Sequence record: NC_050153.1
DNA length: 64,000 nucleotides
Direction: 5' to 3' (one strand)
Source: Escherichia phage vB_EcoM-Ro157c2YLVW
Shown: piece after piece, positions 1,725-35,400 of the stretch
How positions within the stretch are numbered: the stretch's first letter is position 1
Layout of the letters: every line of letters begins with the position of its first letter
Made by a program: the position numbers and the translations under genes
The notes under the pieces: generated by a model
What the model was told of the DNA's origin: nothing
The model's database searches: none
The model's input: the letters and a program-made list of their open reading frames with translations, nothing else

Positions 1725-2324
1725 CTATCCCTTTTGATAGCTTATGACACTCAATGTTTTCAACACCTTCAGCGATGATATTCGGGCATAATTTTTTAAA
1801 TTACTAATAATGACATCAAAATGAGGATTAGTCCCATATTCTTGGAAAAAGGCCTTATCAAGTTTTATTGCATGGTATTTATTTTTAATTAATGTTTTCA
1901 TGGTGGTGTTGCCACTTCCAAAATCATCAAGCCAAACATAGTCTGTCAAAGTCAGGAGAAAGGGTATAACGTAATCCTCATCGCTTAAATCAGGGTAGTT
2001 TTCTGATATCTCAAGAGCTATAAATTTATTGTTTTTAATTAACTCTTGAGTTTGTTTATTACTGTATATATATATACATGTATCATAATCTACATTAATA
2101 GAACATAGTATATTATGGCGTTCAAAAAAACACTTGTATTTCATTATTGTGTTAAGTTGTGATTTAAGTAAATTAATCTTCATCTTATTGGTAAACATAC
2201 CCAATACTCTTTGAGTAGGAAGAGCGACACCATCTTTGGAGCGAAATCTGCTTAACACTTCTACTGCAATCAACTTGTTCGTGCTCGTAGAAATGATTGG
2301 TTCTGCAATGTAGATAACTTCCAT
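1725..2324 (-). CDS. Short EAL-domain-like protein (199 aa), probably non-catalytic
   Basis: Contains AVEVL (EAL-motif variant), LEISE, and WLDDFGSGNTT...IKLDKAFF matching the EAL-domain DDFGTG...KIDRSF core, but lacks the C-terminal EGVE/Q catalytic region; AT-rich relative to neighbours. Confidence 0.55.
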   Translation of the reverse strand: MEVIYIAEPIISTSTNKLIAVEVLSRFRSKDGVALPTQRVLGMFTNKMKINLLKSQLNTIMKYKCFFERHNILCSINVDYDTCIYIYSNKQTQELIKNNKFIALEISENYPDLSDEDYVIPFLLTLTDYVWLDDFGSGNTTMKTLIKNKYHAIKLDKAFFQEYGTNPHFDVIISNLKNYARISSLKVLKTLSVISYQKG

Positions 2325-2564
2325 ATCCCCACCCTCAAGTTTTAAATTGCTTGATTTTGCTCAGATAACGAGCCCCCTATATTTACAAGAGTTACACTCT
2401 ACTTTTGTAGATTAAATGTCAATTTATTTGTTTGTTTGTGATAATATTGAAAAACATCAATTAAAACAATCAAAAAATGTGACATAAATCAATAATTTTA
2501 TTTTTACACAACTTCTTGATTTCTGAGCCTGGCTATCTCTATTCTTATTCAAAGCCTCTTTAGA

Positions 2565-3299
2565 ATGGTGGTGGCCATGTCAGCAGTTTGTTACTTCATA
2601 CTCATAAAGAAACCTATAAGCTTTCAATTTCTTAAGGATTTCTTGATATTAAATTACGGTGATGTGTTGTTGCTTAAGCATTCTGAGCATGAATGCTTAA
2701 AAATGTATTCAGACAAATATATAGAATTCGAACTCAATGATAATACCGTAAGAAACTATTTATTATGCAGCAACAACCTTGGAAACCAATCGCTGGATAA
2801 GTGTCCACATTTGCTAAAAAAGTCTTTTGCCTATCCTGATTTATTAATCAGGATGATCGATAATATAAGCGACCAAAATCATATCCATTCTGATTTTAGG
2901 GAGGCAGTAACTTTTTCATTACTCTCAATTTTTAATGATGTTGATAACTTTAGAGCATTTCTTACGTCTGGTATGCCCACTTTCTCAGGGAAAGTGCGCA
3001 GCATATTTCTTTCAGATGTATCTAAACACTGGAAACTAAGAGACCTAACCGATTATCTCTACATGAGTGAAAGCTTAATAAAGAAAAAACTATTATTGGA
3101 AAACACCTCCTTCAGTAAGTTATTACTTGATACACGGATGGCTTTCGCTATTAAATTACTAAAGCAAAATCATTCAGTCAAACAAGTATCAGAAAGCTGT
3201 GGCTTTAGTAGTACATCGTACTTTGTGTGCCTGTTCAGGCAATATTATAATTGCACGCCACGTGAATATGCAAAACATCAGTTATTATCTGGAAAATAA
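2565..3299 (+). CDS. AraC/XylS-family transcriptional regulator (about 244 aa)
   Basis: C-terminal tandem helix-turn-helix signature typical of AraC family (…LTDYLYMSESLIKKKL…VKQVSESCGFSSTSYFVCLFRQYYNCTPREY); AT-rich gene. Confidence 0.7.
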   Translation: MVVAMSAVCYFILIKKPISFQFLKDFLILNYGDVLLLKHSEHECLKMYSDKYIEFELNDNTVRNYLLCSNNLGNQSLDKCPHLLKKSFAYPDLLIRMIDNISDQNHIHSDFREAVTFSLLSIFNDVDNFRAFLTSGMPTFSGKVRSIFLSDVSKHWKLRDLTDYLYMSESLIKKKLLLENTSFSKLLLDTRMAFAIKLLKQNHSVKQVSESCGFSSTSYFVCLFRQYYNCTPREYAKHQLLSGK

Positions 3300-4056: not shown

Positions 4057-7000
4057 TTATGCGTATTGTTGGATGACGGCCAGAACGTCCGCCACGTTGT
4101 GTTTTGTCTCGATAATCCACCAGTTACCCGGGAAATCGCTGTTCTTTGCCTTCGCTGGCAGCCAGCGAGCGCCGAATTTCGCCTTGATTGCGTCTTTCGC
4201 ACGGAAAAGAATGCCTTTCATGCCTGAGGCTTCCTGAAGCCCAAATACCTCGCCAGCGGCGAATTTTGGTGCGTACATCATCTTCAGGTCGGCGGTGGAT
4301 ACGCGATAATTCAGACCAAGAGACTGAGCTATGCTGGTGGCATCACCCTGTATTGATGATAACTCTTCTTGTTTCTCGTTTCTGGCGGCAATTTCTTCCT
4401 CCGTGATGTTGCCAAGGGCTAGGTTTATCCGATCAGCGTCGGCCTGTTTCTCTTCATCGGTGCGCCCGGCAAGAACCGTGTTAATTCTCTGCAATATCTC
4501 AACATGATTCTTGCGCATGCTGAGCATTTCCGGCGTAACCTCGTTAAGATCCACCAGCCCAAGGATGGCAAGGTCAGTAAACATTGATACCAGGTTGTAG
4601 GTCATGCGATAGCTGAGTTGGCCATAGGCTGATGGCAACTGCACCGCATCCATTTTATAGGCATCCATAAATTTAGAGCCGTCGTTTACGACATCCGCAA
4701 TTGCCGGTGTGATTTTTCCTGTGGTGGCGGCCTCCCTGATTGCTGTTACCCACGATTGAGTCAGCGCGGCGACTGCATGATTCAGATTGGCTTTTCGTTC
4801 TGCTGCAATGCGCGCACTTGCTGCGTCCATTGCCTGCTTGATCTCGTCTTTATTGCTGTAAATGCCAATGGTGCCAAACTGTGCTGTGGTGATCTCATAA
4901 TCTGACGCCCGGAACTCATTGGTACCGAAAATGGCATTGGTGACTTCAAGTTCAGAATCCCCGTTACGAGTAGCCCCCTGGCTTGTTTTTTCCGGCATTC
5001 TGGCGATCGCCTCCGCTATTTTCTCCTGAATTGCTTCAGGGGATAGCGTATCTCCGTATGACGCGATTACATCGCCATAATTGGAGCCAAACAATTCAAC
5101 CAGGAATGTTTCTGCCGAACGGATCTGGCGGTTATTCCCTTCCGACATCATACCAAGCACCCATTTTGCAATTGACGACTTCAGCGCGCCGTCACGGCGA
5201 TCCGGGTAAACCGCATGCTTCAGTGGGTCCGTATAGGTACCAACAAAATCAATGCTATAGCCTGACTCTGTAGTCTGAACGCCGTATGAGTCAGTGATTT
5301 TGATCATGCCGCGCTGCTGGAAACGGTAGAAATCGTCACAGGAAATGATGTCGTTAATCCCGGCGATGGAGACGCCACCACTGATTTTCTGCATAACAGC
5401 ATCTTCATCAGGAGTTACATCAACCTGTTTATCCAGCGTCTTCACATCCCAGTTACCCGATTTGGTGCCTTTGAAGGTAAAGATGATCTCCACGTCTGCG
5501 CGCTGGCTGTCGAAGTCCAGCGACTTAATGCGAACGATATCACCGGCACAATCGTAGTATTGGCCTACACGCCATGAGCGATCGCCGATAACAAGGAACT
5601 CACTCGCATGGTTAACCAGATCAGGATCAACATCCAGAATGCCTTTATTTATTGCATCCTCCACCAGCGGGCGCAGGCGTTTGATATCCGTCGCGGCCTT
5701 CTGAGTACGGTTCAATAATTTCTCATAGCGGGAGATGGCCTGAGAGATATTAGCCTTGCGCTGAATGGCGCTTTTCAACGACGCGCGATACTGTGCTAAC
5801 AACGTACGGTCTGTGTGATGGACGCTACCCCAGCGGGCTTTCCAGTCTGCGTTATCAGCTGCTTTGGCCATTACCGCCTGTTTGAATTTAGCTACCTCGG
5901 CGGTGGTCTTTTCAAGTTCCGCTTTGCTTCGCTCTAATTCAGCGGTAAGTACCTCCACATCCTCGCCTGCTGCGTGCTGCGCCTTGATGTAGTTCTGAAG
6001 GTCGATAGTAGCCTGTTCTTTCTGGCGAGCGCGTTGCGCGGCTTTCGCCTTATCCATTTGAACCTGCATCATTGCCAGACGTTCGCCATCATCCTTAGCG
6101 GTATACATCTGCATTTCGATCATATCGTTGGCGTCGGCGTTCTCCATTTCAGACTTATCTGAGCGGAGGATATCGGAGATCCAGCCTGCTTTACGCTTCA
6201 GCGTCTTCAGTCGGTATTCATCGAAAGAACCCTTGCCGCAGTAGTAGTGAACGCGAACGCTTGCACGGTTGGAACCAACTCGGGCACCGCGACCGTTACG
6301 CTGTGCGATACTGGCTGGTGTCCATGGCAACGTCAGATGATGGATGTCAGTCGTTCCTCGATGCAGGTTGATACCCACCTCTGCCTTTTTGGTGCAGATG
6401 ATGATCGGAGTCCGGCCCTCCTGGAAGTCGGCAGCAATCTTTTCCAGCCCGCCCAGCGACATTTCATTTTGCTGCGCGATATAGGCGTCATACAGAGCCA
6501 TTTGCTCGTTGTATTTCGCTATCTGTGCATCTGTTGGTTCATCCGGTAGCTCTTTCGGCGGTTTAACCGCTTTCAGTTTCTTACCGGTTTTACCTGCCTC
6601 GGCAACCGTCTGAGCATTCAGGATCCCCACCTTTGAAGGTTCAAGGTTAAGAGCATTGCAGATAATGCGCTTGAGCTTCTGGTGTTGCGTTTTTTCATCG
6701 GTGAAGATGATTTGCTTCCCTTCCGGGAAAAACTCCTTCAGCGTGGCAATCAGCTTCGCGTATTTGGGCGTAACGGGGTGAGTTACGGTCTGTTCGTCAA
6801 TGCCAAACCTGGCCAGGCGCTTATTCACTTCCTGCTCAAATGCTTCCGGTACCTGCAACTGAATAAACTCGCCCTTATCTATCAGGGAGTATTGCGATTG
6901 CTGCGTGATAGAATCATCACTGTCGTCGTCTTCGCTGGTGGCTTGTTTAGGCAAACTGTCCGCCAGCTGCTGCACCGCATCGGCGTACTCCGGCAGGAAA

Positions 7001-10000
7001 CGATAGGTGATCCGGCGATAGTACAGGTCCATGTCAGTACATACGCGGTCCATATCCCTGATTATTGAGAAGATCGGACGGGCTTTCTCGTGCTCAATCA
7101 CGCCGTCTTCATTGACCGAGGACGTTACGCCATTGTTGGCTTTGGCTGCCGCTTCCGCCTGCTGACGCAATTCTTCATACGCCGCCAGTTGTTCTTCAGT
7201 AAGTGGTGCATCCTGCTGGTGTTCGTCCAGCTCCGGGATCTCCACGGTATCCTTAACGTCTTCCGCCGTTTTAAGCGTTACCCAGCGATGGAATATACCG
7301 CGCAGCGCATCAAGGTTTTCAAAGCCCACCAGCGCCATTTTTTCTTCAACTTCACCGCTGATTTTCTGTACCGTTTCCAGCCTGGTCTTGCCGAAGAATT
7401 TAACGAAGTCATCAGGACCGTAGATCCCCATCTTCTGCCAGTATTCCTTCGGCAGAACATGAGAGAGCATGTTGTATGCATCGATCGGGGTGTTAACGAC
7501 TGGCGTTGCAGTCAGGAGAACCGGTCCGCGCCCGCCATTCTTTTTCATCAGGTACGCGTTTTTGATTGCCATATCCCGCGCCGATTGCGCCACCGCGCTG
7601 GTGGGCAGATAGGCCAGTTGTGACGCTTCGCGACCATTTTTATAGCTATTGCGGTAGTTGTGACCTTCGTCGGCGATCACACTATCGAAGCCCATATCCT
7701 CAAAGTACGGATACTTCTCTGCTTTTTCGGTACCGGTATCTGAATACTCCGACAATACCCAGCGACGCGCCGCCTCTTTACGATGGGAGTCGGAATCCAT
7801 TGCGCTGGCTACGCGCCCGGCGGCAACGAAGTCATAAAGCATGTCTTGTGCATGCTCATCTACGGTGTCATCACGTAGCGGAATGCGGGCGTATTGTTCT
7901 TTGGTAAACACGACTGCACGGTAATTTGAGTGCGGGATCGCGTTCATCCGCGCCGTGATAGTGGCTTCATCTGCCAGCTTAAGAGCATCGCGCATAACTG
8001 GAGTGCCATCAGTACCAAGAACAGGTTTACCGTTCTCATCGAGCACCGGCACCTGGCGAATCTGATCACCATCCATCAGCACATCAAGACCGACGAACAG
8101 GTAGTTACTGAATGCCTCTTCACTCAGGAACTCTTTTGCTTCGTAATACCAGTTTTCCAGCACTGATTTAGGCACTACATAAGCAGTACGGGTGGAGCGA
8201 CCGTTCTCATAGTTGAACGCCTCAAGCGCCAGCGCGGTCGTGGTTTTACCCAGCCCGGTGCCGAAGCCCAGGATGCCGCGCCCATCTTCGGACAGTCGGC
8301 GCACCTCGCTATTCTGGTAATCAAATGGCTGGCGCTTACCGCTTAATCCCTTCAACCCAAGCGGATCGCCAGAGTGTTCATACGGGATATTGCTATTGAA
8401 CACATCGTTGTATTTGGCAACCAGCTCATCGTAGCGATCGTGCGTCTTGATCCACTTATTGAACTGGTCCTCAAGCAGTGCCATCTGCTCGCGGTAGCCG
8501 TTCGCCGTCGCGCTATCTTTGCCACCGATACGCGCACCATTGAGATACTTTTCCAGCTGTGCCGGGAACCCGGTCGCGTTTTCACCTGATTTACGGTCCC
8601 ACTCGTAGCGGATCTCGCCTGTTTCTTTATCCTTGCGCTGGACGACACCGTATCGGTGCCCGACGAACAGACCATCACCACCGTGATAGGTGTCAGAAAC
8701 CATTTCGTCGCCTTCCAGCTGCACTGACTGCACATAGCGCAGATCCGGATAGCCGTTTTCCTGCAAAAACTCCAGAATGACGGAGCGGTCGAACCAACGG
8801 CTATTGAGCTTAAAGCGGATATTCTCTGCTGGCGTCTTGATGCGCTTCTCTTCGATCGCTGCCAGCTGATTAAGGACGTTGTTCTTTACTGGACCGTCGG
8901 GGAGCGTGGCGAGGAATTCCTGTTTTGGAGCCACTATCTCGTTAATGTCGCCGCTGGTGGCGCGGGCGAACGGAACAATCCCGCCATACGGTGAAACCGC
9001 AATGCCAGGGGTGCTGGCCAATAAATTAAGCAACTCATCATCACTGGCTGGCAGTTCGCCGGTAAACGCAAGGCGGAAATCATCGAGCTGGATTGGATCG
9101 CGAGTGAGATCACTGTAGAGATAACGCAGGGTGTCCTGATAGCTGGTGGAGTCATAACTGGCGCTGGAATCATGCGTAACCAGTTTTCCTGTCAGCTCGT
9201 CAGAAATAGTGCCATCCAGCTTAATTGCACCACGGAAAGCAAACCAGGCGCGCGCACCGCTCCCCGATAATTTCGCTATCGGACCGCGACCGGGGTTACC
9301 AAAACGGTCAATCTCTGCCTGCAAACGGGATACCAGAGAAAGGCGCTGCTGTTCGATTTGTTCAGCACTATGCCCGGCGGCCTTCATGTCCTGATATTCA
9401 ATTAACATCCGGCCAATCATCGCCCCGCGATACAAGCGTTCACGGTATTTTTCAGGCTGGCTGTTAATCCAGTCCACCAGCTGCACCATATCGTCGCTGA
9501 TTGATGTGGTGTACTTATCGCGGACATTTGCCATCTGGGTAAATGTCATGCCGAGACGGCCTTCTGTTGTAGTCAGGTTACGCTGAAGAGCCTCCCAGCT
9601 ATCCGCGCCATAACTGGCAGCATCGATCTTAAGTTCCTTCCCGGCATCAGCTTCAATCCAGCGACCACCAGCATATTTTTGCCATACGCCATTAATCAGG
9701 CGCATTTCCCCTTCACCAACAACGTCTGCGGTCGGTGACGGTTCAGCCATATCGAGCAAAGACCAGTCGATACGGCTTTCGAAACGATGAATCAGCTTCG
9801 CTTTAAGAGCCTGGTTATCAATCTGACCGTCGGCACGAACCTCAATACGCCCCCGGAAGCCCTTTTCTTGGGTGCCATGAACAAACCGGCGGCCATCCTT
9901 TTCAAACCACTTGCCAGAAATAAACGTTGGCCAAAGCACATTTGCTGATTCAAGAGTGCTTTCATCCACCAGGGGGATTTTCTCAGCCATCTCTGCCGGA

Positions 10001-23122: not shown

Positions 23123-23734
23123 TTAATTTCCTGCTTTCAGTTGCTTAAGACGGCGTTTGAGTTCGCCATTTCGGGCCTTTTCGTTATTGAGTCGGCCTGT
23201 CTCCTTATCCAGCTTCGCCCGCAAATCAGTGATCTGCTGTTGATTGAAAGACACCGAGTTCTGCGCTGATTTATAAGCGGCAACCACCTGAGCATTCCGC
23301 TGTTTTGCCTCTTGCAGGCGCTGAAAGTTGGATTTTACTGCCGGTTTCTTGTCTACCGGATTGGCAACACGTTTCGCTTTGGCGATCAGTGATTTCTGGA
23401 ATTTTGCGGAGTTTTTGCGGGCCGCTTGCCCCATGACGGTACCAAGCGTCTTGATATCCGGCGACTGAGCGTTAGGAATAGCTTTTCCATTCAGCCTCAC
23501 AGACGATATATCGCCAGTATCGTTTACCTGTATGGCAAGAATTTGTCCGTCGTTAAGAACCAGCTTTGCGGTTTTAACTTTAACGCCATCTTTCGTTGTT
23601 GCGCGGTTGCTGGAGTCAACCTCAATTACCGTAACACCGGTTTTATTGATCGCCGCGATAAGGGATTTCAGCCCCTTTTCATTAACCTGGTCAAAATCGA
23701 CCGTTGCATACTTATTTTTCGTCATCTGACACAT
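23123..23734 (-). CDS. hdf: Hdf-like protein (homolog of a DarA fragment, 203 aa)
   Basis: Shares segments with DarA-like protein (DGQ…, KNSAKFQ); positively charged C-terminal coiled coil. Confidence 0.5.
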   Translation of the reverse strand: MCQMTKNKYATVDFDQVNEKGLKSLIAAINKTGVTVIEVDSSNRATTKDGVKVKTAKLVLNDGQILAIQVNDTGDISSVRLNGKAIPNAQSPDIKTLGTVMGQAARKNSAKFQKSLIAKAKRVANPVDKKPAVKSNFQRLQEAKQRNAQVVAAYKSAQNSVSFNQQQITDLRAKLDKETGRLNNEKARNGELKRRLKQLKAGN

Positions 23735-24155
23735 CCTGTGCGAGATTTATTACGTAACTTCTGCGGATTTGCTGAGTAACAGGGAAAATCCGATACAACG
23801 GGTTAATGAACGAGTCGCCATGCGTAACCATGACGTTGAAATGCCACAGTCGCTCTCCTTTACCCATATATTCAGTGGGTATGTACAACCATTCACTGTT
23901 TTCGCCCTGTTCAGCCGACGTCAAACAACGTTGTTCGCCTTCAATCACTGTCGTCGGCTTCTGAACATCGCGGATCCAATATCTGACTGTTGCGCCGCGC
24001 AAAAACGGGAATTTAGACCGGTATTTGAACGGCACCCGGATGAAACCCGGTTTAATTTCCACATCACCAAGTTCTAAATGCGTGATGTCCTTGCGTTTTA
24101 GCAAATAGCGATCGGCTAAGGCTAACGCAAGAACGCATACACCCCAGCCAATCAT
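23712..24155 (-). CDS. lydB: LydB-like holin antagonist (147 aa)
   Basis: ORF overlapping the stop of the upstream holin-like gene; assignment by synteny and size (memory). Confidence 0.45.
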   Translation of the reverse strand: MIGWGVCVLALALADRYLLKRKDITHLELGDVEIKPGFIRVPFKYRSKFPFLRGATVRYWIRDVQKPTTVIEGEQRCLTSAEQGENSEWLYIPTEYMGKGERLWHFNVMVTHGDSFINPLYRIFPVTQQIRRSYVINLAQDVSDDEK

Positions 24156-24481
24156 TTCCCGCCTCCCTTTTTCACCAAACTTGTAAGAACATTCAGAATG
24201 CTATCGATATTCACTCGTTTCATCCCTGAAATCACCTCATGACCGTTATTGCTGGCTATCGTTACCATTAAGTACGTAATTGATAACTCCCAGCCCTCGT
24301 GTTGCCCCAATAGGTACGCCACCGCGCCAGCTGTCACTGCAACAAAGATCTCCGTAACCAATCCCAACAAATTGCCAGACTGGCGACCGTCTCGGACATC
24401 CATCAGGAACGTGCCTATCCCACCAATTACTGAAAGCAGGAGCGCAATAGCAACTGGAGCTAATTCCTGTGTGTCAAGCAC
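24152..24481 (-). CDS. lydA: Holin (LydA-like, 109 aa)
   Basis: Two strongly hydrophobic helices (LAPVAIALLLSVIGGIGTFLM; LLGLVTEIFVAVTAGAVAYLLG) and charged C-terminus; first gene of the operon. Confidence 0.55.
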   Translation of the reverse strand: MLDTQELAPVAIALLLSVIGGIGTFLMDVRDGRQSGNLLGLVTEIFVAVTAGAVAYLLGQHEGWELSITYLMVTIASNNGHEVISGMKRVNIDSILNVLTSLVKKGGGK

Positions 24482-24539
24482 AAGTTCCCTCCTACGTTGT
24501 CAGGAGGTAATGGTATGCAAAGTAACTTCTCAACCGGTC

Positions 24540-24746
24540 ATGCAAAGACAACAAGCGGAAAAAGAAAAGCAAAGCCTGCTACAACTCGTCAGGGATAAAA
24601 CTCAGCTCTGGGACTCACAGTTACGGCTAGGCATTATTTCCGTTCAGGGTAAACAAAAATTAACCGAGTGGATTCTCTATGCGCAGAAAGTCGAATCCAC
24701 GGATACCTCCATCCTTCCAGTAACGTTTCCCGAAAAGCCGGAATGA
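24540..24746 (+). CDS. Small coiled-coil protein (68 aa), divergent from the lysis/dar operon
   Basis: ATG at 24540, in frame with the tail of track ORF 24249..24746; followed by hairpin aggcccgggatcgggcct; weak ribosome-binding site. Confidence 0.25.
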   Translation: MQRQQAEKEKQSLLQLVRDKTQLWDSQLRLGIISVQGKQKLTEWILYAQKVESTDTSILPVTFPEKPE

Positions 24747-25080
24747 GGAAAGGCCCGGGATCGGGCCTTAATTAATATCTATAATCCCAACAAATAAGGG
24801 CTAACAATTTTGTTAATTTTCTCTGGATATAATGCATGTGCTTTAATATACCTGAAGTTATATTAAAGAGCGTCATGTAAAAATTAAATAAATCAATTAA
24901 ATCTATTTTCAATAGACAAATCAAAATTTTTAACAGATATGTATAGAAATGGCAAGCCATAAATTAATAATGACATCCTTAATAAGCCCAAAGAAACACT
25001 GAATAGATAAAATATAAATTATTGCATCCCAAAATACAGAAAGTAGTGGCAATCTTGCAACTTATTATCAATACAATATT

Positions 25081-25115
25081 GACATCCCTTTAGTGCTCAG
25101 TTTAAAATTAATATT
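25081..25115 (+). promoter_or_regulatory. Sigma70-like promoter upstream of the acetyltransferase gene
   Basis: ttgaca, 17-bp spacer, taaaat within an AT-rich block about 120 bp upstream of the start. Confidence 0.35.
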
Positions 25116-25234
25116 TGTGTTTACATTGTGCGTTGGTTTAGTTTAGCAGGAACGCAGTAACACACTGATGCTTATTGTTTTAATTATAATGTCGATATAT
25201 AACCATAGAAACCAAAAATATAGGCAGTTGCAAT

Positions 25235-25807
25235 ATGTTATGTTACTTAATAGCTATTCACTTTGTCATCTTTGGGAATTCAAAAGCTCTATTGAGCTAT
25301 TGGATGGCTGAAGTCATCAGGCGAGAAAAAATGGATGTTTGGCGACTATTAAGAGAGAAGAGGCAGCGCAATCGGAATTTCCTTTTCTGGTGGAGATTGG
25401 CTAATGAAATGCATATTAATGGTAATAAATTACATAAGAAAGCAGCCAAAAAGTTAAACAGTAAAATAATTAACAAATTTGGTTGTGAAATTGGATTGGG
25501 CGCAAATATTGGAAAAGGGTTAACAATTCCCCATCATGCTGGAATTGTTGTTCATTTTGCTGTTGATGCTGGTGAAAATCTGGTGTTACGACAGAATACG
25601 ACCATTGGACAGATAGATGGTGACATACCTGGTTCAAGAGTAAAAATTGGTAGCAACGTTGATATCGGAGCTAATTGTTGCATCATTGGATTATCACGTA
25701 AAATTGGGGATAATGTAAAAATAGGTGCAATGTCTTTTATAAATAAAGATATACCATCGAACTGCACATATATTACTAAAAAGAGCGGTGTTGTATTGTA
25801 TAAATAG
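25235..25807 (+). CDS. Hexapeptide-repeat O-acetyltransferase (left-handed beta-helix; CysE/WcaB-like, 190 aa)
   Basis: Repeating [LIV]-G-x-x-x-x hexapeptides (IGKGLTIPHHAGIVVH…VKIGSNVDIGANCCIIGLSRKIGDNVKIGAMSF); gene and flanks are AT-rich. Confidence 0.7.
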   Translation: MLCYLIAIHFVIFGNSKALLSYWMAEVIRREKMDVWRLLREKRQRNRNFLFWWRLANEMHINGNKLHKKAAKKLNSKIINKFGCEIGLGANIGKGLTIPHHAGIVVHFAVDAGENLVLRQNTTIGQIDGDIPGSRVKIGSNVDIGANCCIIGLSRKIGDNVKIGAMSFINKDIPSNCTYITKKSGVVLYK

Positions 25808-25814
25808 AGTACAT

Positions 25815-25852
25815 AAAGCCATCAATATTTCTATCGATGGCTTTATCTTTTT
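25815..25852. terminator. Hairpin terminator between convergent acetyltransferase and tail-fibre assembly genes
   Basis: aaagccatc…gatggcttt stem followed by atcttttta. Confidence 0.5.
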
Positions 25853-26429
25853 ATTGCGGGGCGACTGGCCACTCAACATCCGCTGCTACTGCTGTATCAA
25901 CACGATTCAACAATACCCGATATGTCTTCCATGCAGTCAGTAACGATGCCTCTTCCTCCGTCGCAATATCCAAATCTACGGCATCCTGAAGTGGCGCAAT
26001 ATGCTCACTGGCCATCTGCATCAGGCTGTTTTTTGTTTCTTCCGCCTTCCGGATCCGGAACAGTTTTTCTGCTTCTGCATCTTTCACCCAGGCTGTGCCG
26101 TTCCACTTCTGAAACTCCCCTTCCGGGGATAACCAGGTGACATTTTCCGGTAATGGGCCAAGTTCAGAAATAAATAACGCGTCGCCGGAAGCCACGTCAT
26201 AGACGGTTTTTCCCCGATGGTCTTCAACGAGATTCCACGATGCCTCATCACTGTTGAAAACGGCCACGAAGCCAGCCGGAATATCTGGCGGGGCAATATC
26301 GGTACTGTTTGCAGGCAGACCTGTATGAGGTGGAATGTATGCATCACCTTCACCAATAAACTCATTGGTTCCGGTCAGTAGATTATAAATTTTTATGGTC
26401 CGTGATTGTTCACTCATTCTGAATGTCAT
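25851..26429 (-). CDS. Tail fibre assembly chaperone (Tfa-like, 192 aa)
   Basis: Located immediately downstream of the tail fibre gene, size and acidic composition typical of Tfa/U proteins; start overlaps fibre stop. Confidence 0.6.
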
Positions 26430-29278
26430 TATGCAAGCCTCACAATATAGTTAAATGCGATGTTTTTTACGGTGTTTTCTTCGTTACCCGTAGCGTTAAC
26501 GGTGATGGTGTGTCCGTGGGGACCAATAATGACAGAATGGGCATGAGCACCAATGCCGATAGTGTGGTTATGGGCACCGATATATACATTGTGAGCATGC
26601 CCGCCTGCGCTCGACGTGGTACCAGTACCTAACGCAGCGTTAAAACCGGCTGATACACCATTCCCCGCGCCAGTGTGACCAACAGGTATATTGTGTGAAT
26701 GATTTCCAGCGCTATTCGTAGTTTTTGTGCCGTAATCAAATGAACTGGTCGTTTTAGTACCGTAATCAAACGACGATGTGGTTTTCGTCCCCAAATCCGT
26801 ACTGGATGCGCTGGCGCTGTGGGTGTGCGATTTAATGCCGTCCTGTTCCTGAGACAATACGGCACGACCACTGCCGGGCTTGCCCTTAATCGTCCAGCCA
26901 CGCATATCAGGAATAACGCCTGACGGATAAGCCGCTGCAAGTTTCGGGTATGCAGATTTGTCAAAAGTCTGCCCCTGCATCAGGGCATAACCAGACGGAA
27001 CGGTATCTGATGGCCACGGGATTGGTGCGCCGACTGGGTAGCTTTCTGGTGGAAGATTTTTCGAGGTATAAACTTCTGCCCAGTCTTCCTCAAAACCATA
27101 ACCGTCTCTTGAAGAACGGTAGAACAGACCACCATTTCTGTAATGCGCCTTCATCTGCAAGGTCGGGCAACTTCCGACTCCGGTATAGAAGTTAACCAGA
27201 ATATAGCTGTCGGCAGAGCGAATGACATTGTAAGCGCCTGATTCGGCATTCCAGGGAACGCCCCCATCCGCATCGGCATACGTATCCGTTGCTCTTCTGG
27301 CAAAAGCAGCAACATGCGCAGCGGTTAAAGTGATATCAGTAGAACCATCAAACGAGACGCCATTGATAGTACATGCTGTCTGCAACTTGGTCGCTGTAGC
27401 CGCATTACCAGAGGTGTCCTGATCCCCTTTGGCATTGACGCCGGGAATTGAATCTTTTGACGTATAGACCTGCGCCCATTCAGACCAGTTGGCAGAATCA
27501 GTATCACGCCGCGAACGGATATGTACGGGCGCATGGTCACCGCTCGTGCCACTCCAGCCAATGAATAACTCACCTTCGCCAGCAGCGGTGGCACCTTTAA
27601 GGTGAAGCACATTGCCATAGGTGGAAGGGTAGCCATTGTTGTATGCCTCATACAGCTGAATCCCGGATGTTCCCTGTGCATTCGCCTCTAGGGCCGTTAC
27701 GCGACCGCGAGATACCAGAGTATTGATATTAATGTCAGCCGAACCATCGAATCTGACGCCATTAATGTTTATGGCTGTTTTTAATTTCGTCGCGGTGTCG
27801 GCGTTCCCTGTCAGCGCCCCGGTGATCCCACCGTTGAAAGTCTGGCGTGCACTCCATTTGTTAGCCGTGCTCAACAGGGGGATCTTTTCACCGCTTGTGC
27901 CAAGTTCTCTTAAATCAAGGTATTGGATAACAGCAAGGACGCTTGTTTTGGCCAGAATATCGCGACCGACTGACGTTAAGTCAGTCTGAGAAATAGTGTC
28001 TGTACCGGTAAAGTACGGCAATTTATTTGCGCCTGTAGCAAGACCAGCAAGCGCGGTTAAAGTTGCATCCAGAGGCTGTTTGCCTGCCAGCGCATTTGTC
28101 ATTGTTGTCGCAAAGTTCGGGTCATTACCAAGTGCTGCGGCAAGCTCATTCAGGGTATCAAGAGCTTCTGGTGATGAACCAACCAATGCGGATATGGCAG
28201 CTCTTACATAAGCGGTCGTAGCAATCTGCGTGTTATTCGTACCCTGTGCAGCGGTAGGCGCAGTAGGTATTCCCGTTAATGCAGGACTTGCTAAAGGAGC
28301 TTTAAGAGCCAGAGCATTGTTGATAGTTGTGCTGAAATTCGGGTCGTTATTGATCGCAGCAGCTATTTCTTTAAGCGTATCCAGTGTGCCAGGTGCACCG
28401 TTGATAAGTGCCGTTATAGCTGCCTTAACAAAGGCTGTATTTGCGATCTGCGTGCTATTTGTACCTTGCGCTGCCGTCGGCGCGGTTGGCGTTCCTGTCA
28501 GACTCGGGCTTTCTATTGGCGCTTTGGTATCAGCAAGATCTTTTACAGACTTAACGGCTTTAGGGGTAGCCGCCATTGTTTCGCTGTCGCTGTTAGTTTC
28601 GCTACTGAGCTGAACTAATCCCTTTTGCGTTGTGCTTGCATCCTGCGCCGTATACTTACTGTTCGCCAGATCGTAGGCTTTTTTAACTGCCAGCGAACTT
28701 GCAGCAACATCACTTCTGCTACTGGTTACAGAGTCTGAAATATCAATGCCGATCGTGCGGTTAATACGCTCGGATGTATCAATCATCTCCTGGGTAATGG
28801 CTGATACTCCAGCAGGGATATTCACCGTACAAACAAGCAGCTCCCCATCTCCTAACTGATATGAATCGGTATAGGTTCTGGTAACAAATTCAGCCGCATG
28901 AATATGTGACGCGGTATTAACCTGATAGGTATCCTCTCCAAGGAGGTATCTTCCCTTCAGCACAATTGCATATTTCTTGCCTGCACTAAGTGCAAGAGGA
29001 ATATCCGTACATTGCTGAATAGTTACCTGGTAGAATTCACCAATATCCACCGACGCCGCGCCTGCGGTTTTATCTCCATCCACTGAGGTGATTAACAGGT
29101 TCATCCCACCGCCAGGCTTAGGTAAGAAACCGGCATAAAATCCCGGGTCAACAATCCCCCTGAATTTTCGGTTTAGCGCGGCTGACAGATATGGTTCGTG
29201 GTATTGCACATCAGCAACCAGAGCCAACGACTCGGGTGATGGGTAAGTAACCGATGTAACAACTGTAACGTCATTCAT
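26429..29278 (-). CDS. Tail fibre protein (about 949 aa)
   Basis: Tandem about 60-aa repeats (…[22 protein letters not shown]…NDPNF…), [10 protein letters not shown] x3, His-rich C-terminal repeats ([25 protein letters not shown]); start set to internal ATG (MNDVTVV) rather than the upstream TTG. Confidence 0.8.
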
Positions 29279-29289
29279 CAAGCATATCC

Positions 29290-29724
29290 TTATGCTGTAG
29301 TCGTGTTTATGGCCATAACTGCGGTATATGTTTTGCCCACATACAGCGAGTCTTCCTGGACACAAATAATGGCGATTGGCTTGTTCTCGTTATCCAGAAC
29401 AACCAGAGTGTTGAATGGGTAGTTTTTCCCTTCCTGCAACTGGCTTTGATCAAGGTCCATTCGGACAGTAATTATCCCACCTGAGTAGGTTGGCACGAGG
29501 TTGATGGTACAAAATTGGCTGGTCAGTTCTGCCAGATCGAAAGCCTTTGGCAGTTCTCCAATCTCATAAGTGCCATCTCCTTTCTTAGTAACCAGAGAAC
29601 TGGTACCGAAAACGGCCTTGCTGATTAAAAATCGAGAGCCTTTGTTAATGGACGATTCAGCGCGCCGCTGATAGTAATAGTCCAACAACTGACTCTTATA
29701 GAGGTTTGTTGAGACGTCAGACAT
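29290..29724 (-). CDS. Tail fibre / baseplate-associated structural protein (R-like, 144 aa)
   Basis: Small ORF immediately upstream of the tail fibre gene; synteny. Confidence 0.45.
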
Positions 29725-32428: not shown

Positions 32429-35400
32429 TCAACTCTCGCGTAGTCATTCATCAACGGATCATCAATTGACAGTGGTACCGTGCGCATAACGCCCGGCTGA
32501 GGCGTGCTGACCTTTACGACAGTTCCCTGGCCTTTCGCCGAGTCTTTGGTGTGCTCTTCAATCCTGGCAAGCAATGAGGTCATCTGCGCAAACAGCCGCT
32601 TCGTTTCACCATCAAGTGAAACGGTATTATCAGCCAACTGCATTGTCGGCTTGGCACCGGAGCCGCCAAGGTCACTAATAACCTGTCCGTCTATCTGCAT
32701 ACGACCGGTTGGTTGCTGCAAATCGTTGACGGCAGTCGTCACCTGGGACGTGGAGGCTGGTTCAGGCGCATTATTTTTCCGCATCCCCGGCGAGTTGCGG
32801 AGTTTATCGAATAGTCCATCAATCCCCATTTGTGCGCCGAGTTGGTCAAAGTAACTTGAGTTGCTGGCCACCGGACGCGCCTCTTCAACTGGCATCGGAG
32901 TATCAACATACACATTGCCAGCTGCTGTTGCGGTCCCCTTCCCTCGTGCACGTTCTTCGAGCGTTCCCTGAACGACTTCCCGACGCATACCCCGGCCATT
33001 CATGAATTTGTTGACCAGATCGTTAACGCCAACAGCATTGCCGATTTTGTCTACCAAACCGCCTTTCTCAAACGGGCTATCACCAGGGGTAAACGCCAGA
33101 CCAGTAGACTGATCGATAACGGCGTTATCAGGTAGTGGTTCCCTCACTCCATATTGCGCCCCACCCTGTGCTCCTGCCCCAGGTGTATAGATTTCACCAC
33201 CTAAATAGCGAGCACGATGAGTATTGACCTTGATCGCGTACTCACGGTTTTCCTTCGATAAGTCACCGGTGCCTTTTTTCCACTTATTAATAGTGCCAAA
33301 CCCAGCGTTATATGCAGTGATGGCCTCGTTTAAGTCTCCATTGGCTTGCTTCAGATACTTGCTCATGAGAAGAGCCGCAGCTTCTGCCGATTTCACAGGA
33401 TCAAACGATTCACCTTCAGCTAAGCCAGTCTCTTCACGAGCAATGCCCGTGAACTGAAACATTCCTAGAGCACCAGTTTGGGATTTTGCGTACGGATTAC
33501 CACCAGATTCAGTTGCAGCAATCGCGTAAAGAGTGCCTTCAGGAAGACCATATTTATTCTCCAGTTCAGCAAAATACGGAGCTAACTTATCGAGATTTGC
33601 CTTACCTTCAGCGCCAAGGCTTCCGACTTTTACATCTAAGTTGCCATTATTGTAGGTATCAGCAGCTTTCTGAATGTCATTCCTGGTGCCGGTGGTATTA
33701 CGCGACGATGATGACGAGCTATTTTGTCCAATAGCTGAATCAATTTTCCGCACCGCGCTATTGCCCGTTTCTACGGCATTTGCATTGATAATCTGATTGG
33801 CAGTTTCTTTAACTGTTTTATTGCTATCTTTCGCCGTGTCCAGTGCCGCATTTATCACGCGGGTAGCAATATTAGTCTGTTTAGCATCGGATTCAGTTTT
33901 AGAATCAGATGTCTCCTGGTGGCTATTAACCGGAGCTTTTAACTCTGGAGTGATTTCTTTTGCATTAGCCTCGCCGATCGGATTGGGTATTTTTGATACA
34001 ATCATTGCCGCAGGGGTATTTTTAACGGCATCAACCGCTGCATCTAATGCTTTACCGGGTAAACTTTTAACCCCATCCCAAATATTACCAGCCGCCTCTT
34101 TAATGTGTTTTCCTGGGTTCTTAATGAAGTCAATTGCACTATCAATTGCATCACTGAAAACCTGTTTCAGGTTATCGACAGTAAAGAAGTCTTTTATGGC
34201 ATCCAGCTTTTCAAGCAACTTATTAGATGTATCGCTAAACCATGCTGAAACAGCATCACCAATCTTTGCTGTGTAATCATCGAACTTGGTAGAAATGGTG
34301 TCGCCAAGGTTAGAAATATATGTTTCTAAGTTGGTAACCCCACTATCAATGGCCTGGGCAATACTTTCCGTCGAAAATGATTGCAACATATTGCCGATAT
34401 CCTCAAATCCAAGTGATTTGAGAACATCACCAATAGCACTGCTAATACCAGATACCAGTCCCCCCATATCGAGAACATTGGCTAACGTATAAGCGGCTTT
34501 TTGCTGGAATGATGGATCTTGTCCTGATTTAAGCCCAAACGCTCGACGTTGCGCTTCTGTATCATTCCAACCGGTTACCGCATCATAAATACCTCCAGCC
34601 ACTGTGCCGACTAGGGGAATTGCGCGTAACGCCCCTTTACCAACTGCCTTTAATCCAAGTTTACCTGCTGCCCGGGCAGCCAAATCTCCGCCTTCATGGG
34701 CGAGAGTCTTCTTGCCACCACCGCGTAGCATTCCTACAAGTTTCTTTGCCCCCAGAGCGCCAAAAGCGAGTGCTCCAGCTTTTTTCAGCATGCCACGCCC
34801 CATTAACAACGACGCGACGCCACCGGCCCCCTTCCCTAACAGGCTAAATAGTTTGGACAGCAAGCCGCCCTTCTTTTTACCGGTGTTTTTGGCTATCTGA
34901 TCAAGGGCGCGGAGAATCTTGTCATTGCCCTCTTTAATTTCGCTGGTCTGCTCCTGAAGTTCCTGAACCGTCCGTTTTTGGGTGTTAACCTGAACGACAT
35001 CGGCACTATTTTGCGATTTACGCCTAAAAAAACCTTTTCTACGGCTGTTATCGTCATTGCCACGAATCACATCGGCAATAGACTTTCTGGCACCATTAAG
35101 CGATCCACCAACTTCTTTTGATATCCCGCCAAGCTCCTTCCCTGCTGCCCACAATGGACCAGCAACGGCATAACCTAACGCATCGACGGCACGAGTCTCT
35201 GAAGGGTTGCCTATGCCTTCAGCTACTTTTGACAGTTTTTTTAATAAACCTGATTCAGCATTTAGACGCTCATCATCCTCTTTGCGCCTGGCCTTTTCAG
35301 CACGTTCAGCACGGGCATCTTCCGCTGCGGCCTTACTCCCTGACTTTCCAATAAAACGACCACGCGCATCGCGTTGGTTTTGGCTTTTTTGCGCACCGCC

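Follow-up and report, generated by a model that had tools for sequence, protein, structure and literature searches.

The window analyzed here, a 64-kb stretch of Escherichia phage vB_EcoM-Ro157c2YLVW (NC_050153.1), is part of a P1-type plasmid prophage and carries an AT-rich island (24774-25850) that encodes a hexapeptide-repeat acetyltransferase (Table 1). The G+C content of the island is 0.316, versus 0.476 for the window, and is the second lowest of all 1,077-bp stretches in the 64 kb (z = -3.85). The neighboring genes tfa and S have G+C contents of 0.487 and 0.494. The island extends between two stop codons, that of a U' remnant at 24744-24746 and that of U/tfa at 25851-25853, and contains a promoter-like site, the acetyltransferase gene, and a terminator hairpin. 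In P1, U' (33785-34318) and U (34347-34874) are separated by 28 bp; in the window the corresponding stop codons are ~1.1 kb apart, and the two genes converge.

On the left side, homology to P1 continues up to 24773, through a hairpin that folds at -15.1 kcal/mol on the + strand and -14.6 kcal/mol on the - strand. Further left, lydA is 99.4% identical to its counterparts in P1 and JL22; the promoter LPdar drives lydA, lydB, and the dar genes. We looked for direct repeats, IS-like ends, and phase-variation tracts at the ends and in the interior of the island and saw none. The sole tandem repeat at the island is a weak three-copy 9-mer within AT-rich DNA. The island is moron-type phage cargo, an extra and presumably separately transcribed unit set between two genes that adjoin in a related phage: it is placed between genes that are neighbors in P1, and its base composition is deviant. 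A preliminary description had placed an AT-rich block between the lysis/dar side and the fiber genes, where P1 has cin and the C-segment, and both statements agree with the base composition and with the comparison to P1.

Table 1. Features of the acetyltransferase island and its flanks, in window positions
Feature	Position	Strand	Evidence or remark
lydA holin, last P1-backbone gene left of the island	24152..24481	-	Pfam Phage_holin_3_3, E = 5e-7
-22 box AAGTTACTT of retained late promoter LPdar	24520..24528	-	Identical to the P1-annotated LPdar and LPs -22 boxes
Deletion junction	24541..24542		blastn versus JL22 locus
U' pseudogene remnant, 3' 204 bp including stop codon	24543..24746	+	Caudo_TAP, profile 60-131 of 131, E = 6e-18
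G+C-rich hairpin, homolog of the P1 28-bp U'/U spacer	24750..24769		Directly after U' stop; left island edge
AT-rich noncoding left half, with acetyltransferase leader	24774..25234	+	27% G+C, ~460 bp
Sigma-70 promoter-like site TTGACA-18-TAAAAT	25079..25108	+	Motif match, 11/12 consensus positions
Acetyltransferase gene, 190 aa	25235..25807	+	Hexapep matches, PHROG 2154
Terminator-like hairpin and T-run	25813..25858 (hairpin 25813-25846)	+	Overlaps U/tfa 3' end
U/tfa tail fiber assembly gene, lambda Tfa type	25851..26429	-	Caudo_TAP, E = 3e-42; convergent with acetyltransferase gene
Receptor-binding C-terminal tip of S, lambda Stf type	26429..27040	-	Right part of shared block
Tail fiber gene S, P1 constant part fused to lambda-type tip	26429..29278	-	949 aa as annotated in identical plasmids
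Orphan cixR-like site inside S	27908..27927		One mismatch to P1 cixR

Noncoding DNA, Promoter-Like Site, and Terminator

The left half of the island is confined to P1-like plasmids (65 genomes, 0 chromosomal places). We identified two small reverse-strand ORFs in it, of 62 and 40 aa, for which a coding role is unlikely: neither has a PHROG match, and 1-bp indels between variants of the left half argue against coding. In an Rfam scan of 24400-25900 (E <= 1) no known RNA family was detected in the left half. A match to cyanobacterial tmRNA in the same scan is at chance level, with 12.5 bits versus a gathering score of 70.

The promoter-like site lies ~125 nt upstream of the acetyltransferase start codon, and both of its hexamers are unchanged in four plasmid variants that otherwise diverge by up to 7%. 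Such matches are common in AT-rich DNA, and their count in the region does not exceed chance expectation (8 observed versus 5.5 +/- 2.6 expected), so the site stays a motif match. Upstream of the gene the island has neither of the P1 control motifs searched for, a C1 operator and a late-promoter -22 box; the best C1 operator candidate in the island has 4 mismatches, lies in AT-rich DNA, and was rejected.

The terminator hairpin has 15-bp arms followed by AUCUUUUUAUUG and a folding free energy of -14.6 kcal/mol on the + strand (z = -3.2) and -20.5 kcal/mol on the - strand (z = -7.1). P2-like prophages keep this hairpin along with the gene, and homology to them continues through it. Both elements had been proposed before from the sequence, and both are present, the promoter as a motif match.

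Loss of the Invertible Segment

Comparison with JL22 accounts for the absence of the P1 switch genes. By blastn, window positions 23601-24541 correspond to positions 1976-2916 of the JL22 locus and window positions 24543-27040 to positions 5794-8291. Relative to a JL22-type phage, the 2,877 bp missing between these segments comprise lydC, cin, cixL, the Sv' cassette, and the 5' 330 bp of U'. In tblastn searches of the 64 kb, P1 Cin matches nothing and LydC matches only its paralog lydA. Neither microhomology nor a cix-like sequence is apparent at the junction. The same junction recurs in 49 complete E. coli genomes as well as in pO111_2, pE2855-2, and pF1273-3. An IS3 insertion in bplA, suspected from the 100%-identical plasmid pF1273-3, is not in the window.

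The U' remnant shares 86% identity with the 3' end of the P1 gene and 97% with U' of JL22, and has no start codon of its own. U' is the tail fiber assembly gene of the lost second cassette. The cixR-like site falls in the 589-bp C-segment repeat (27340-27928); because it has neither a partner site nor Cin, the fiber is locked. The claim that the locus has no recombinase thus stands. The companion claim, that there is no inverted second fiber-tip cassette, is right as to Sv', which is gone, and needs amending as to the last 204 bp of U' and the cixR-like site, which survive.

The island did not replace the C-segment; a 2.9-kb deletion gave rise to the arrangement in the window, in which a stub of U' and one cix site remain. 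All components of the Cin/C-segment switch occur in JL22-type relatives that retain cin. There the island lies at the center of the invertible segment, and both orientations are found in sequenced plasmids. As in the P1 C-segment/Cin system (and the Mu G-segment/Gin system, likewise a host-range switch), these relatives have two cix-bounded cassettes. Still present in the window are the constant part of S, the 589-bp repeat, and the cixR-like site; unlike P1, the window has no cin, cixL, or Sv' and lacks most of U', so the switch is dead. It also differs from the P1 C-segment in having a lambda-type tip in one cassette and, in place of the 28 bp of P1, a 1.1-kb cargo island at the center.

The Acetyltransferase

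Public records name the acetyltransferase 'sacF' or 'serine O-acetyltransferase', with RefSeq and GenBank using serine (O-)acetyltransferase. [quoted passage not shown] A Pfam scan detected Hexapep and Hexapep_2 alone, and no SATase_N domain. The protein belongs to PHROG 2154, a phage protein family of unknown function, with a near full-length match (E = 3.6e-84; residues 13-190 versus profile positions 3-181 of 185). The AlphaFold2 model (pLDDT 87) predicts five N-terminal helices followed by a left-handed beta-helix, in a soluble protein with no membrane-protein features.

The start at 25235 is backed by P2-like orthologs, whose N terminus is conserved and which begin with GTG at this codon, served by a strong ribosome-binding site. 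In the P1-plasmid version the ribosome-binding site is weak. A shorter ORF from Met33, as annotated in JL22, was rejected on the basis of the conserved N terminus and the strong P2-like ribosome-binding site at the aligned start.

The database name raises the question of whether the enzyme is a real serine O-acetyltransferase (CysE, EC 2.3.1.30). The gene would then be an auxiliary metabolic gene whose product supplies O-acetylserine, either in the lysogen or during infection, and would raise the cysteine supply or turn on the CysB regulon without feedback control. Apart from the naming, several features are consistent with this. The best solved folds for the model are serine acetyltransferases (TM about 0.65-0.69), as are the best sequence matches among solved structures (E = 6.6e-13), a comparison that is one-sided in that no WcaB structure is among the matches in either search. 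The acetyl-CoA-binding beta-helix of CysE is conserved, and the catalytic pair of CysE, H158 and D143, is matched in the alignment by His100 and Glu85. These residues are nearly invariant across 64 homologs, and His100 is so in the family; in WcaB, too, the equivalent of Glu85 aligns with D143.

Beyond the catalytic pair, resemblance to CysE breaks down. Scores fall far below the cutoffs of both NCBIfam CysE models (TIGR01172, 59.6 bits versus 210.65; NF008349, 35.6 versus 397). About 50 residues of E. coli CysE, including RDPA and the D92 segment, have no counterpart in the alignment. In solved CysE structures, the side chains that bind serine are Asp157 and Arg192-His193 (E. coli numbering). 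The former aligns with Pro99, and the GDRHP loop aligns with PGSR-V; the loop is not conserved and is hypervariable among the 64 family members. The protein stops 10-12 residues past the last beta-helix turn (...SGVVLYK), where CysE runs about 35 residues more, and thus lacks the CysK-binding C-terminal tail. Given these differences, synthesis of O-acetylserine is very unlikely to be the role of the enzyme.

Among characterized E. coli enzymes the best pairwise match is WcaB, the O-acetyltransferase of the colanic acid repeat unit (35% over 109 aa; 57 bits versus 42 bits for CysE). Like the island protein, WcaB consists of a few N-terminal helices and a beta-helix (162 versus 190 aa) and lacks the same CysE-specific segments. 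Unlike wcaB, the island gene lies outside the wca cluster, in a phage fiber region, and its product scores below the cutoffs of the WcaB models (TIGR04016 and NF007564, 52.7 and 54 bits versus 194.65 and 196). The best NCBIfam match is the EpsC model NF041874, yet at 70.3 bits versus a cutoff of 150. The NCBIfam matches include the sugar and polysaccharide enzymes WcaB, EpsC, WbbJ, WcaF, and HpsU; the xenobiotic families CatB and Vat are not among them.

Judged by these comparisons, the protein is not CysE, is closer to WcaB, and looks more like a sugar-acetylating enzyme. It is probably best placed in a short WcaB/EpsC-like branch of the hexapeptide family, separate from WcaB and represented by PHROG 2154. 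The preliminary description of the ORF as a CysE/WcaB-like hexapeptide acetyltransferase is consistent with the Hexapep matches and with profile matches to EpsC, CysE, and WcaB, all sub-threshold. It had also named, as a finding that would speak against its reading, closest homologs that are housekeeping serine acetyltransferases with no link to surface sugars; in the homology searches the closest homologs are not housekeeping serine acetyltransferases.

A Shared Cassette under Selection

The acetyltransferase gene is intact in 530 of 5,426 complete E. coli genomes, on P1-like plasmids and in P2-like prophages. The gene, tfa, and the fiber tip form a single 1,798-bp blastn segment (25243-27040) that matches, at 95.9% identity, a P2-like prophage in E. 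coli HUSEC2011, and the block shared with JL22 stops at the same base, 27040. U/tfa is 89-92% identical to tfa of lambda-like phages. Relatives from Escherichia, Salmonella, and Buttiauxella, 35-79% identical, have the same gene order. The comparisons suggest that acetyltransferase, tfa, and tip travel as one cassette between phage families. Strict coupling of enzyme and tip alleles was rejected, as phage 613R2 pairs a 35%-identical acetyltransferase with a similar lambda-type tip (85-87% DNA identity).

Movement in one block with tfa and the tip could also mean that the gene is a functionless passenger, carried because it is wedged between often-recombining fiber genes. The weak ribosome-binding site of the P1-plasmid version and the 460-bp left half without recognizable function would fit such a passenger. 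Selection argues otherwise: the ORF is full length and intact in all copies examined, and dN/dS is 0.08-0.21 across P1-like and P2-like copies, so the gene is under purifying selection. Also against a passenger are the near-invariant catalytic residues of the 64 homologs and the retention of the gene in a decayed, IS-riddled P2-like remnant of O157:H7 that lost its fiber gene. We regard the passenger explanation as the least probable of those considered here.

The exchange resembles that of certain known morons of temperate phages, AT-rich self-contained units at the 3' end of fiber operons that pass between unrelated phage families via fiber-gene homology. Examples are Z/fun of P2, between G and FI, and the sopE cassette, flanked by tail fiber genes in P2-like and lambdoid Salmonella phages. 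The island differs from these in its cargo and in its site, which in the P1 lineage is the center of a site-specific invertible segment; to our knowledge such siting is not described for Z/fun or sopE.

Genomic Neighborhoods of Relatives

Distant relatives of the acetyltransferase are often found among LPS and polysaccharide genes and not in cys operons, which also speaks against a serine acetyltransferase. A GT25 adjoins a relative in a Xenorhabdus prophage, next to a tail fiber, and another in an Orbaceae chromosome. Among the neighbors of other relatives are a Wzy_C/WaaL-type ligase, LPS kinases, HldE, NeuB with a GNAT, an MsbA-like ABC transporter, an AT3-SGNH acyltransferase, a pyruvyl transferase, and GT9. 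Of the 80 species-representative loci, many have neighbors of unrelated kinds, for example GGDEF and AraC proteins in Rahnella, and in two metagenome-derived genomes an aromatic amino-acid lyase adjoins the relative. Relatives at about 55% identity are carried by IncF and EAF plasmids, in surroundings that lack phage tail genes; those on IncF plasmids adjoin genes for ParE toxin, ProQ/FinO, and colicin immunity, and other close relatives lie in integrase islets.

This use of close relatives as general mobile-element cargo raises the possibility that the target is not a glycan. The enzyme may instead acetylate a toxin, an antibiotic, a signaling nucleotide, or a protein and so help the mobile element to counter phages or bacteriocins or to compete in other ways, as is the case for other cargo at this position. 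In P2-like prophages the gene sits in the slot between the tail fiber assembly gene and the sheath/tube operon, which in P2 itself holds the T5-exclusion gene Z/fun. Hexapeptide acetyltransferases include xenobiotic-inactivating enzymes. Arguing in the other direction, a PADLOC-DB 2.0 search with the acetyltransferase matched no defence-protein family, and two papers on P2/P4 defence hotspots mention no acetyltransferase. The NCBIfam matches, with sugar and polysaccharide enzymes and no CatB or Vat, and the LPS and polysaccharide neighbors of distant relatives count against it as well. A non-glycan target is a real possibility, if on the unlikely side.

Proposed Function in the Lysogen

There is, in our judgment, an even chance that the island enzyme is a lysogenic-conversion enzyme that O-acetylates an envelope glycan. 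For this role we infer expression in the lysogen, a sugar acceptor, and an effect on phage adsorption. The sigma-70-type promoter of the island would transcribe the gene independently of the P1 C1 repressor and of the late activator, and it is proposed that the enzyme is therefore made in the lysogen. The product is predicted to be a soluble, catalytically competent, acetyl-CoA-dependent O-acetyltransferase. Its proposed substrate, at the cytoplasmic face, is an envelope-glycan sugar in lipid-linked or nucleotide-linked form; the candidate glycans are LPS (core or O-unit), colanic acid, and enterobacterial common antigen. The acetylated surface would lower the adsorption of competing phages or alter antigenicity. 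The gene passes by recombination between P1-like and P2-like phages, together with the lambda-Stf-type tip and the chaperone. In the window, loss of cin and the alternative cassette through the 2.9-kb deletion locked the segment.

Modification of a surface polysaccharide had been suggested in the preliminary description from the position of the gene beside receptor-binding genes. The suggestion is plausible and is now better supported, given the failed tests for CysE, the closer match to WcaB, closest homologs other than housekeeping serine acetyltransferases, the glycan-related neighborhoods, and co-inheritance with the fiber tip and its chaperone. Its link to the neighboring fiber is weakened by plasmid relatives without tail genes and by the tip itself, which is of the lambda Stf type. 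Because the known receptor of such tips is the protein OmpC, the enzyme need not modify the receptor of the neighboring fiber.

Closer integration, in which acetyltransferase, chaperone, and tip could form a functional 'bind-and-mask' cassette that includes coupling to orientation, we consider doubtful. The acetylated LPS core or other glycan could be the receptor or co-receptor of P1-, P2-, Mu-, or T-even-type fibers, and the lysogen could be refractory to related tips. Because the gene sits inside the invertible segment in cin-retaining phages, flipping would switch it between two states there. It would be put either downstream of, and co-directional with, the late R-S'-U' operon or convergent with late R-S-tfa, and receptor masking would then be coupled to which fiber tip is made. 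With LPS as the acceptor, some 10% of sequenced E. coli, typical O157:H7, O111, O26, O103, and O104:H4 strains among them, would also carry an unrecognized LPS modification.

Acetylation of envelope glycans by prophage enzymes has precedents. The NeuO gene adjoins a receptor-binding tailspike gene. The hexapeptide enzyme NeuO of the E. coli K1 prophage CUS-3, a polysialic-acid O-acetyltransferase, modifies the K1 capsule and increases resistance to phages (PMC3046976, PMC13001214). The island enzyme is likewise a prophage-borne O-acetyltransferase with a left-handed beta-helix, of the NodL/LacA/CysE superfamily. Unlike NeuO, which is phase variable through 5' heptanucleotide repeats, the island ORF has no tandem repeat in or before it. 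The island protein does not match NeuO at E <= 0.01 in the solved-structure search, and where the acceptor of NeuO is known, that of the island enzyme is a list of candidates. The phage O-antigen acetylases Oac (Sf6) and GtrC (P22-like BTP1) are integral-membrane acyltransferase-3 enzymes that work on the periplasmic side, unlike the island enzyme, which is predicted to be soluble and to have a beta-helix fold. Both acetylate LPS sugars in lysogenic conversion and thereby block superinfection (PMC7067206).

Implications

The island is cargo of a familiar phage kind. As the island shows, the pivot of the classical P1 host-range switch can accommodate a cargo gene, and most island carriers have since lost the switch, one deletion junction being common to the 49 genomes. 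It also provides a clear case of a tip, a chaperone, and a cargo gene moving as a 1.8-kb block between unrelated phage families. The database label 'serine O-acetyltransferase, cysteine biosynthesis', which has spread over hundreds of records, is corrected here, since the protein departs from CysE in nearly every respect compared and keeps the catalytic pair. Should the enzyme indeed acetylate an envelope glycan, Shiga-toxin-producing and other E. coli would have in it a widespread lysogenic-conversion factor that has so far gone unexamined. Effects on phage susceptibility, of importance to phage typing and phage therapy, and possibly on antigenicity could follow.

Island structure and insertion site

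Between the lysis/dar operon and the fibre genes, the G+C profile falls from ~0.5 to 0.26-0.36 (about 24750 to 25850). The island itself (24774-25850) has a G+C content of 31.6%, versus 47.6% window-wide and 48.7% and 49.4% for the flanking genes tfa and S. Of the 1,077-bp stretches that the window contains, it ranks second lowest in G+C (z = -3.85). The AT-rich block, acetyltransferase gene, and terminator of the preliminary description were all recovered, the last as a hairpin with predicted folding energies of -14.6 kcal/mol (+ strand, z = -3.2) and -20.5 kcal/mol (- strand, z = -7.1). The promoter-like element proposed there is present as a motif. Since the total of such sites (8 observed versus 5.5 +/- 2.6 in shuffled expectation) is not above expectation, we treat it as a motif match; the one feature that strengthens it as a putative promoter is that both hexamers are unchanged across four plasmid variants otherwise diverging by up to 7%.

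The AT-rich left half (24774-25234, 460 bp) contains no annotated feature, RNA-family match, or PHROG-matching ORF and, among complete E. coli genomes, is confined to P1-like plasmids. Over 24740-25240, pE2855-2 agrees with the window over the first half of the island's non-coding part and with pO111_2 over the second (comparison loci L018 and L019), a pattern indicating that plasmid lineages have recombined within the island. We take the island to be a moron because its flanking genes are adjacent in P1, its composition is foreign, it carries promoter-like and terminator-like signals, and it lacks P1 control motifs (neither a C1 operator nor a late-promoter box lies within it). A second AT-rich island (1725-3299), which includes the window minimum of G+C (0.309 over 1792-2868), carries divergent EAL-domain and AraC-family genes and looks like another cargo unit of the P1-like plasmid.

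Features of the island, its flanks, and the second AT-rich island
Feature	Position	Strand	Remarks
EAL-domain protein	1725-2324	-	stand-alone, 199 aa; Pfam EAL, E = 7e-13
AraC-family regulator	2565-3299	+	244 aa; HTH_18, E = 2e-13
darA, hdf	left of island	-	
lydB	23712-24155	-	left of island
lydA	24152-24481	-	left of island
LPdar -22 box	24520-24528		late promoter retained
U' stub	24543-24746		204 bp; Caudo_TAP, E = 6e-18
Promoter-like site	25079-25108		TTGACA-18-TAAAAT, 11/12 consensus positions
Acetyltransferase ORF	25235-25807	+	190 aa; one convincing ORF of island
Terminator-like hairpin	25813-25846		folding; 15-nt arms, then T-run
U/tfa	25851-26429	-	right of island
S	26429-29278	-	right of island
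Orphan cixR-like site	27908-27927		TCTTAAATCAAGGTATTGGA; one mismatch to P1 cixR; inside S
R	29290-29724	-	right of island

A deleted switch and the pivot position

In P1 the order from lydA to S is lydC, cin, cixL, Sv', U', a 28-bp spacer, U, Sv, and cixR. By blastn, 23601-24541 is P1 backbone (99.4% identity), 24542-24773 is the U' 3' end plus the U'/U spacer (86% identity), and 27340-27928 is the 589-bp C-segment repeat. P1 Cin had no match anywhere in the 64 kb and LydC matched only its paralogue lydA, so the preliminary description was right that the recombinase and second fibre cassette are missing. The cassette has nevertheless left traces: the U' stub and the orphan cix site persist, the latter with neither a partner site nor an invertase within the 64 kb.

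Relative to JL22, a P1-like phage that retains cin, the window lacks exactly 2,877 bp comprising lydC, cin, cixL, Sv', and the 5' 330 bp of U'. The left breakpoint of this 2.9-kb deletion (24541/24542) is ~13 bp upstream of the LPdar -22 box, leaving the lysis/dar operon promoter intact, and the junction has neither microhomology nor cix-like sequence. This exact junction occurs in 49 complete E. coli genomes, and the cin-less layout is also found in pO111_2, pE2855-2, and pF1273-3. In pF1273-3 (E. coli O157:H7 F1273; L017/L112) the island is 100% identical to the window's, and an IS3-family element interrupts the baseplate gene bplA (labelled 'bleomycin hydrolase' in RefSeq), which probably makes that prophage defective; bplA is uninterrupted in the window, so the window represents another plasmid of this group. 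Within the fibre gene, a variable part of S (27041-27332, ~290 bp) has no blastn match in JL22 while both sides are 97-98% identical, and is a further mosaic joint.

JL22 is the only phage record carrying the island (98.6% identity). Its order is lydC, cin, S', U', the island with the acetyltransferase gene ('sacF'), tfa, and stf; the invertible segment is intact there, and the island sits between its two converging assembly genes. The island is not a replacement of the switch; it occupies the switch's pivot. Both segment orientations are found where cin is kept: cin adjoins S'-U' in Ec40743 unnamed3, pECY44-3, and JL22, and lies on the far side in pEND_Eco 19025-2 and p15648-1, where R-S'-U' is fused and predicted to be expressed. 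The segment therefore flips with the acetyltransferase gene inside. In one state the gene follows the late R-S'-U' operon directly and in the same direction; in the other it converges with R-S-tfa, and this second state is the one in which the window is locked.

A cassette shared with P2-like prophages

The P1-like lydA segment occurs in about 465 complete E. coli genomes and the whole island in 65, always on a plasmid. The right half, which is the gene, also has 533 chromosomal places in complete E. coli genomes at 90-95% identity; overall, 530 of 5,426 E. coli genomes have the gene, with O157:H7, O111, O103, and HUSEC2011 strains among the matches listed. Chromosomal copies lie within P2-like prophages, convergent with a tail-fibre-assembly gene, in either the gpU/Tfa interval or the sheath gene/Tfa interval, the latter being the slot that Z/fun occupies in P2. 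One continuous blastn segment (25243-27040), 95.9% identical to the HUSEC2011 prophage, spans the gene, terminator, tfa, and the final ~610 bp of the fibre gene, and the block shared with JL22 stops at the same base, 27040. The gene belongs to a mobile cassette that P2-like prophages share.

Both tfa and the tip belong to the lambda Stf/Tfa type, with 89-92% identity to lambda-like phages, and the island is absent from those phages. Relatives in Escherichia, Salmonella, and Buttiauxella keep the order acetyltransferase-tfa-tip at 35-79% identity (protein or DNA). Strict coupling of enzyme and tip alleles is ruled out, as a 35%-identical enzyme adjoins an 85-87%-identical tip. In E. coli P2-like prophages (L009-L011, 6617-8244), a 67%-identical acetyltransferase gene adjoins an 87-aa tail-fibre-assembly fragment, after which come a class I methyltransferase gene and a complete assembly gene. 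Here a further cargo gene has gone in and the tfa 3' end has been duplicated, suggesting repeated cargo swapping by recombination within tfa.

The acetyltransferase

The 190-aa reading is the correct one, because P2-like orthologues have a GTG start at the aligned codon preceded by a TAAGGAG ribosome-binding site, the N-terminal 32 residues are conserved, and the PHROG 2154 match spans residues 13-190. The gene is under purifying selection (dN/dS 0.08-0.21) and is intact in a decayed O157:H7 remnant whose fibre gene was removed by IS elements; both observations contradict a passenger without function, an idea we find scarcely credible.

The AlphaFold2 model (pLDDT 87) has five helices followed by a left-handed beta-helix, and the nearest solved folds are serine acetyltransferases (TM about 0.65-0.69). 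A true serine acetyltransferase is very unlikely, however, given its active site and architecture. No SATase_N domain was detected, and scores against two CysE models (59.6 versus a cutoff of 210.65; 35.6 versus 397) are far too low. The Asp92-bearing CysE segment has no counterpart, Pro99 aligns with CysE Asp157, the GDRHP loop is unconserved here and across the family, and the CysE C-terminal tail is absent. The catalytic His (His100, nearly invariant) and an acidic partner (Glu85) are kept. Pairwise, the colanic-acid enzyme WcaB is closer than CysE (35% over 109 aa, 57 bits, versus 42 bits), and scores are well under the WcaB and EpsC model cutoffs as well. On these comparisons the 'serine acetyltransferase' label is unsupported, and the protein fits best as a family of its own within the short WcaB/EpsC-like branch; it is probably an active O-acetyltransferase that uses acetyl-CoA and a non-serine acceptor.

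Gene neighbourhoods and proposed function

The closest relatives are all mobile-element cargo, located in P2-like prophages, at a prophage end adjoining copA, on EAF plasmids beside the bfp operon, on IncF plasmids beside ParE and ProQ, and in a Salmonella integrase islet. Relatives at 41-53% identity are often in envelope-glycan loci. A family-25 LPS glycosyltransferase is the partner in a Xenorhabdus prophage, between integrase and tail fibre, and a family-25 enzyme again on an Orbaceae chromosome, where a polysaccharide pyruvyl transferase lies alongside. In Halopseudomonas the relative is among an MsbA-like exporter, an LPS-kinase-like gene, NeuB, and GNAT; it comes after a WaaL-type ligase gene in Pseudomonas jinjuensis and a Kdo/WaaP-family kinase in Dechloromonas, and is between HldE and an AT3-SGNH acyltransferase in a marine gammaproteobacterium. 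A GT9 heptosyltransferase is a neighbour four times. Not all relatives show this signal: the neighbours are GGDEF and AraC in nine Rahnella loci, and an aromatic amino-acid lyase adjoins the relative in two metagenome-derived genomes.

We give roughly even chances to a role in which the enzyme would be produced in the lysogen and, at the cytoplasmic face, O-acetylate a sugar within an envelope glycan, thereby altering the cell surface. Functionally, the nearest parallel is NeuO from prophage CUS-3; this hexapeptide O-acetyltransferase modifies the K1 capsule and raises phage resistance (PMC3046976, PMC13001214). In P22-like phages, membrane acetylases such as GtrC play this part for O-antigen (PMC7067206). 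Less likely is a non-glycan acceptor that would serve mobile elements in competing with one another; it would accord with the P2 cargo slot and with the plasmid contexts, but PADLOC gave no match and there is no xenobiotic-type family signal.

Surface-polysaccharide modification was first proposed from the proximity of receptor-binding genes. The linked tip is lambda Stf-like, and the described receptor of lambda Stf is OmpC; adjacency by itself does not show OmpC to be masked by the enzyme. A coupling of receptor masking to the switching of fibres, together with an unrecognised LPS modification in enterohaemorrhagic E. coli, seems improbable.

The gene is annotated in hundreds of records, and the JL22 paper noted 'sacF' and stated the reason for its presence as unknown (PMC9603915); we found no functional study in the literature. 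A phage moron with a glycan acetyltransferase gene is a known kind, and this enzyme is a probable glycan acetyltransferase. What is new is its position at the pivot of an invertible segment observed in both orientations, a common deletion that freezes the fibre in 49 genomes, a 1.8-kb cassette in common with P2-like prophages, the demonstration that the serine acetyltransferase annotation lacks support, and the LPS and polysaccharide neighbourhoods of its relatives.
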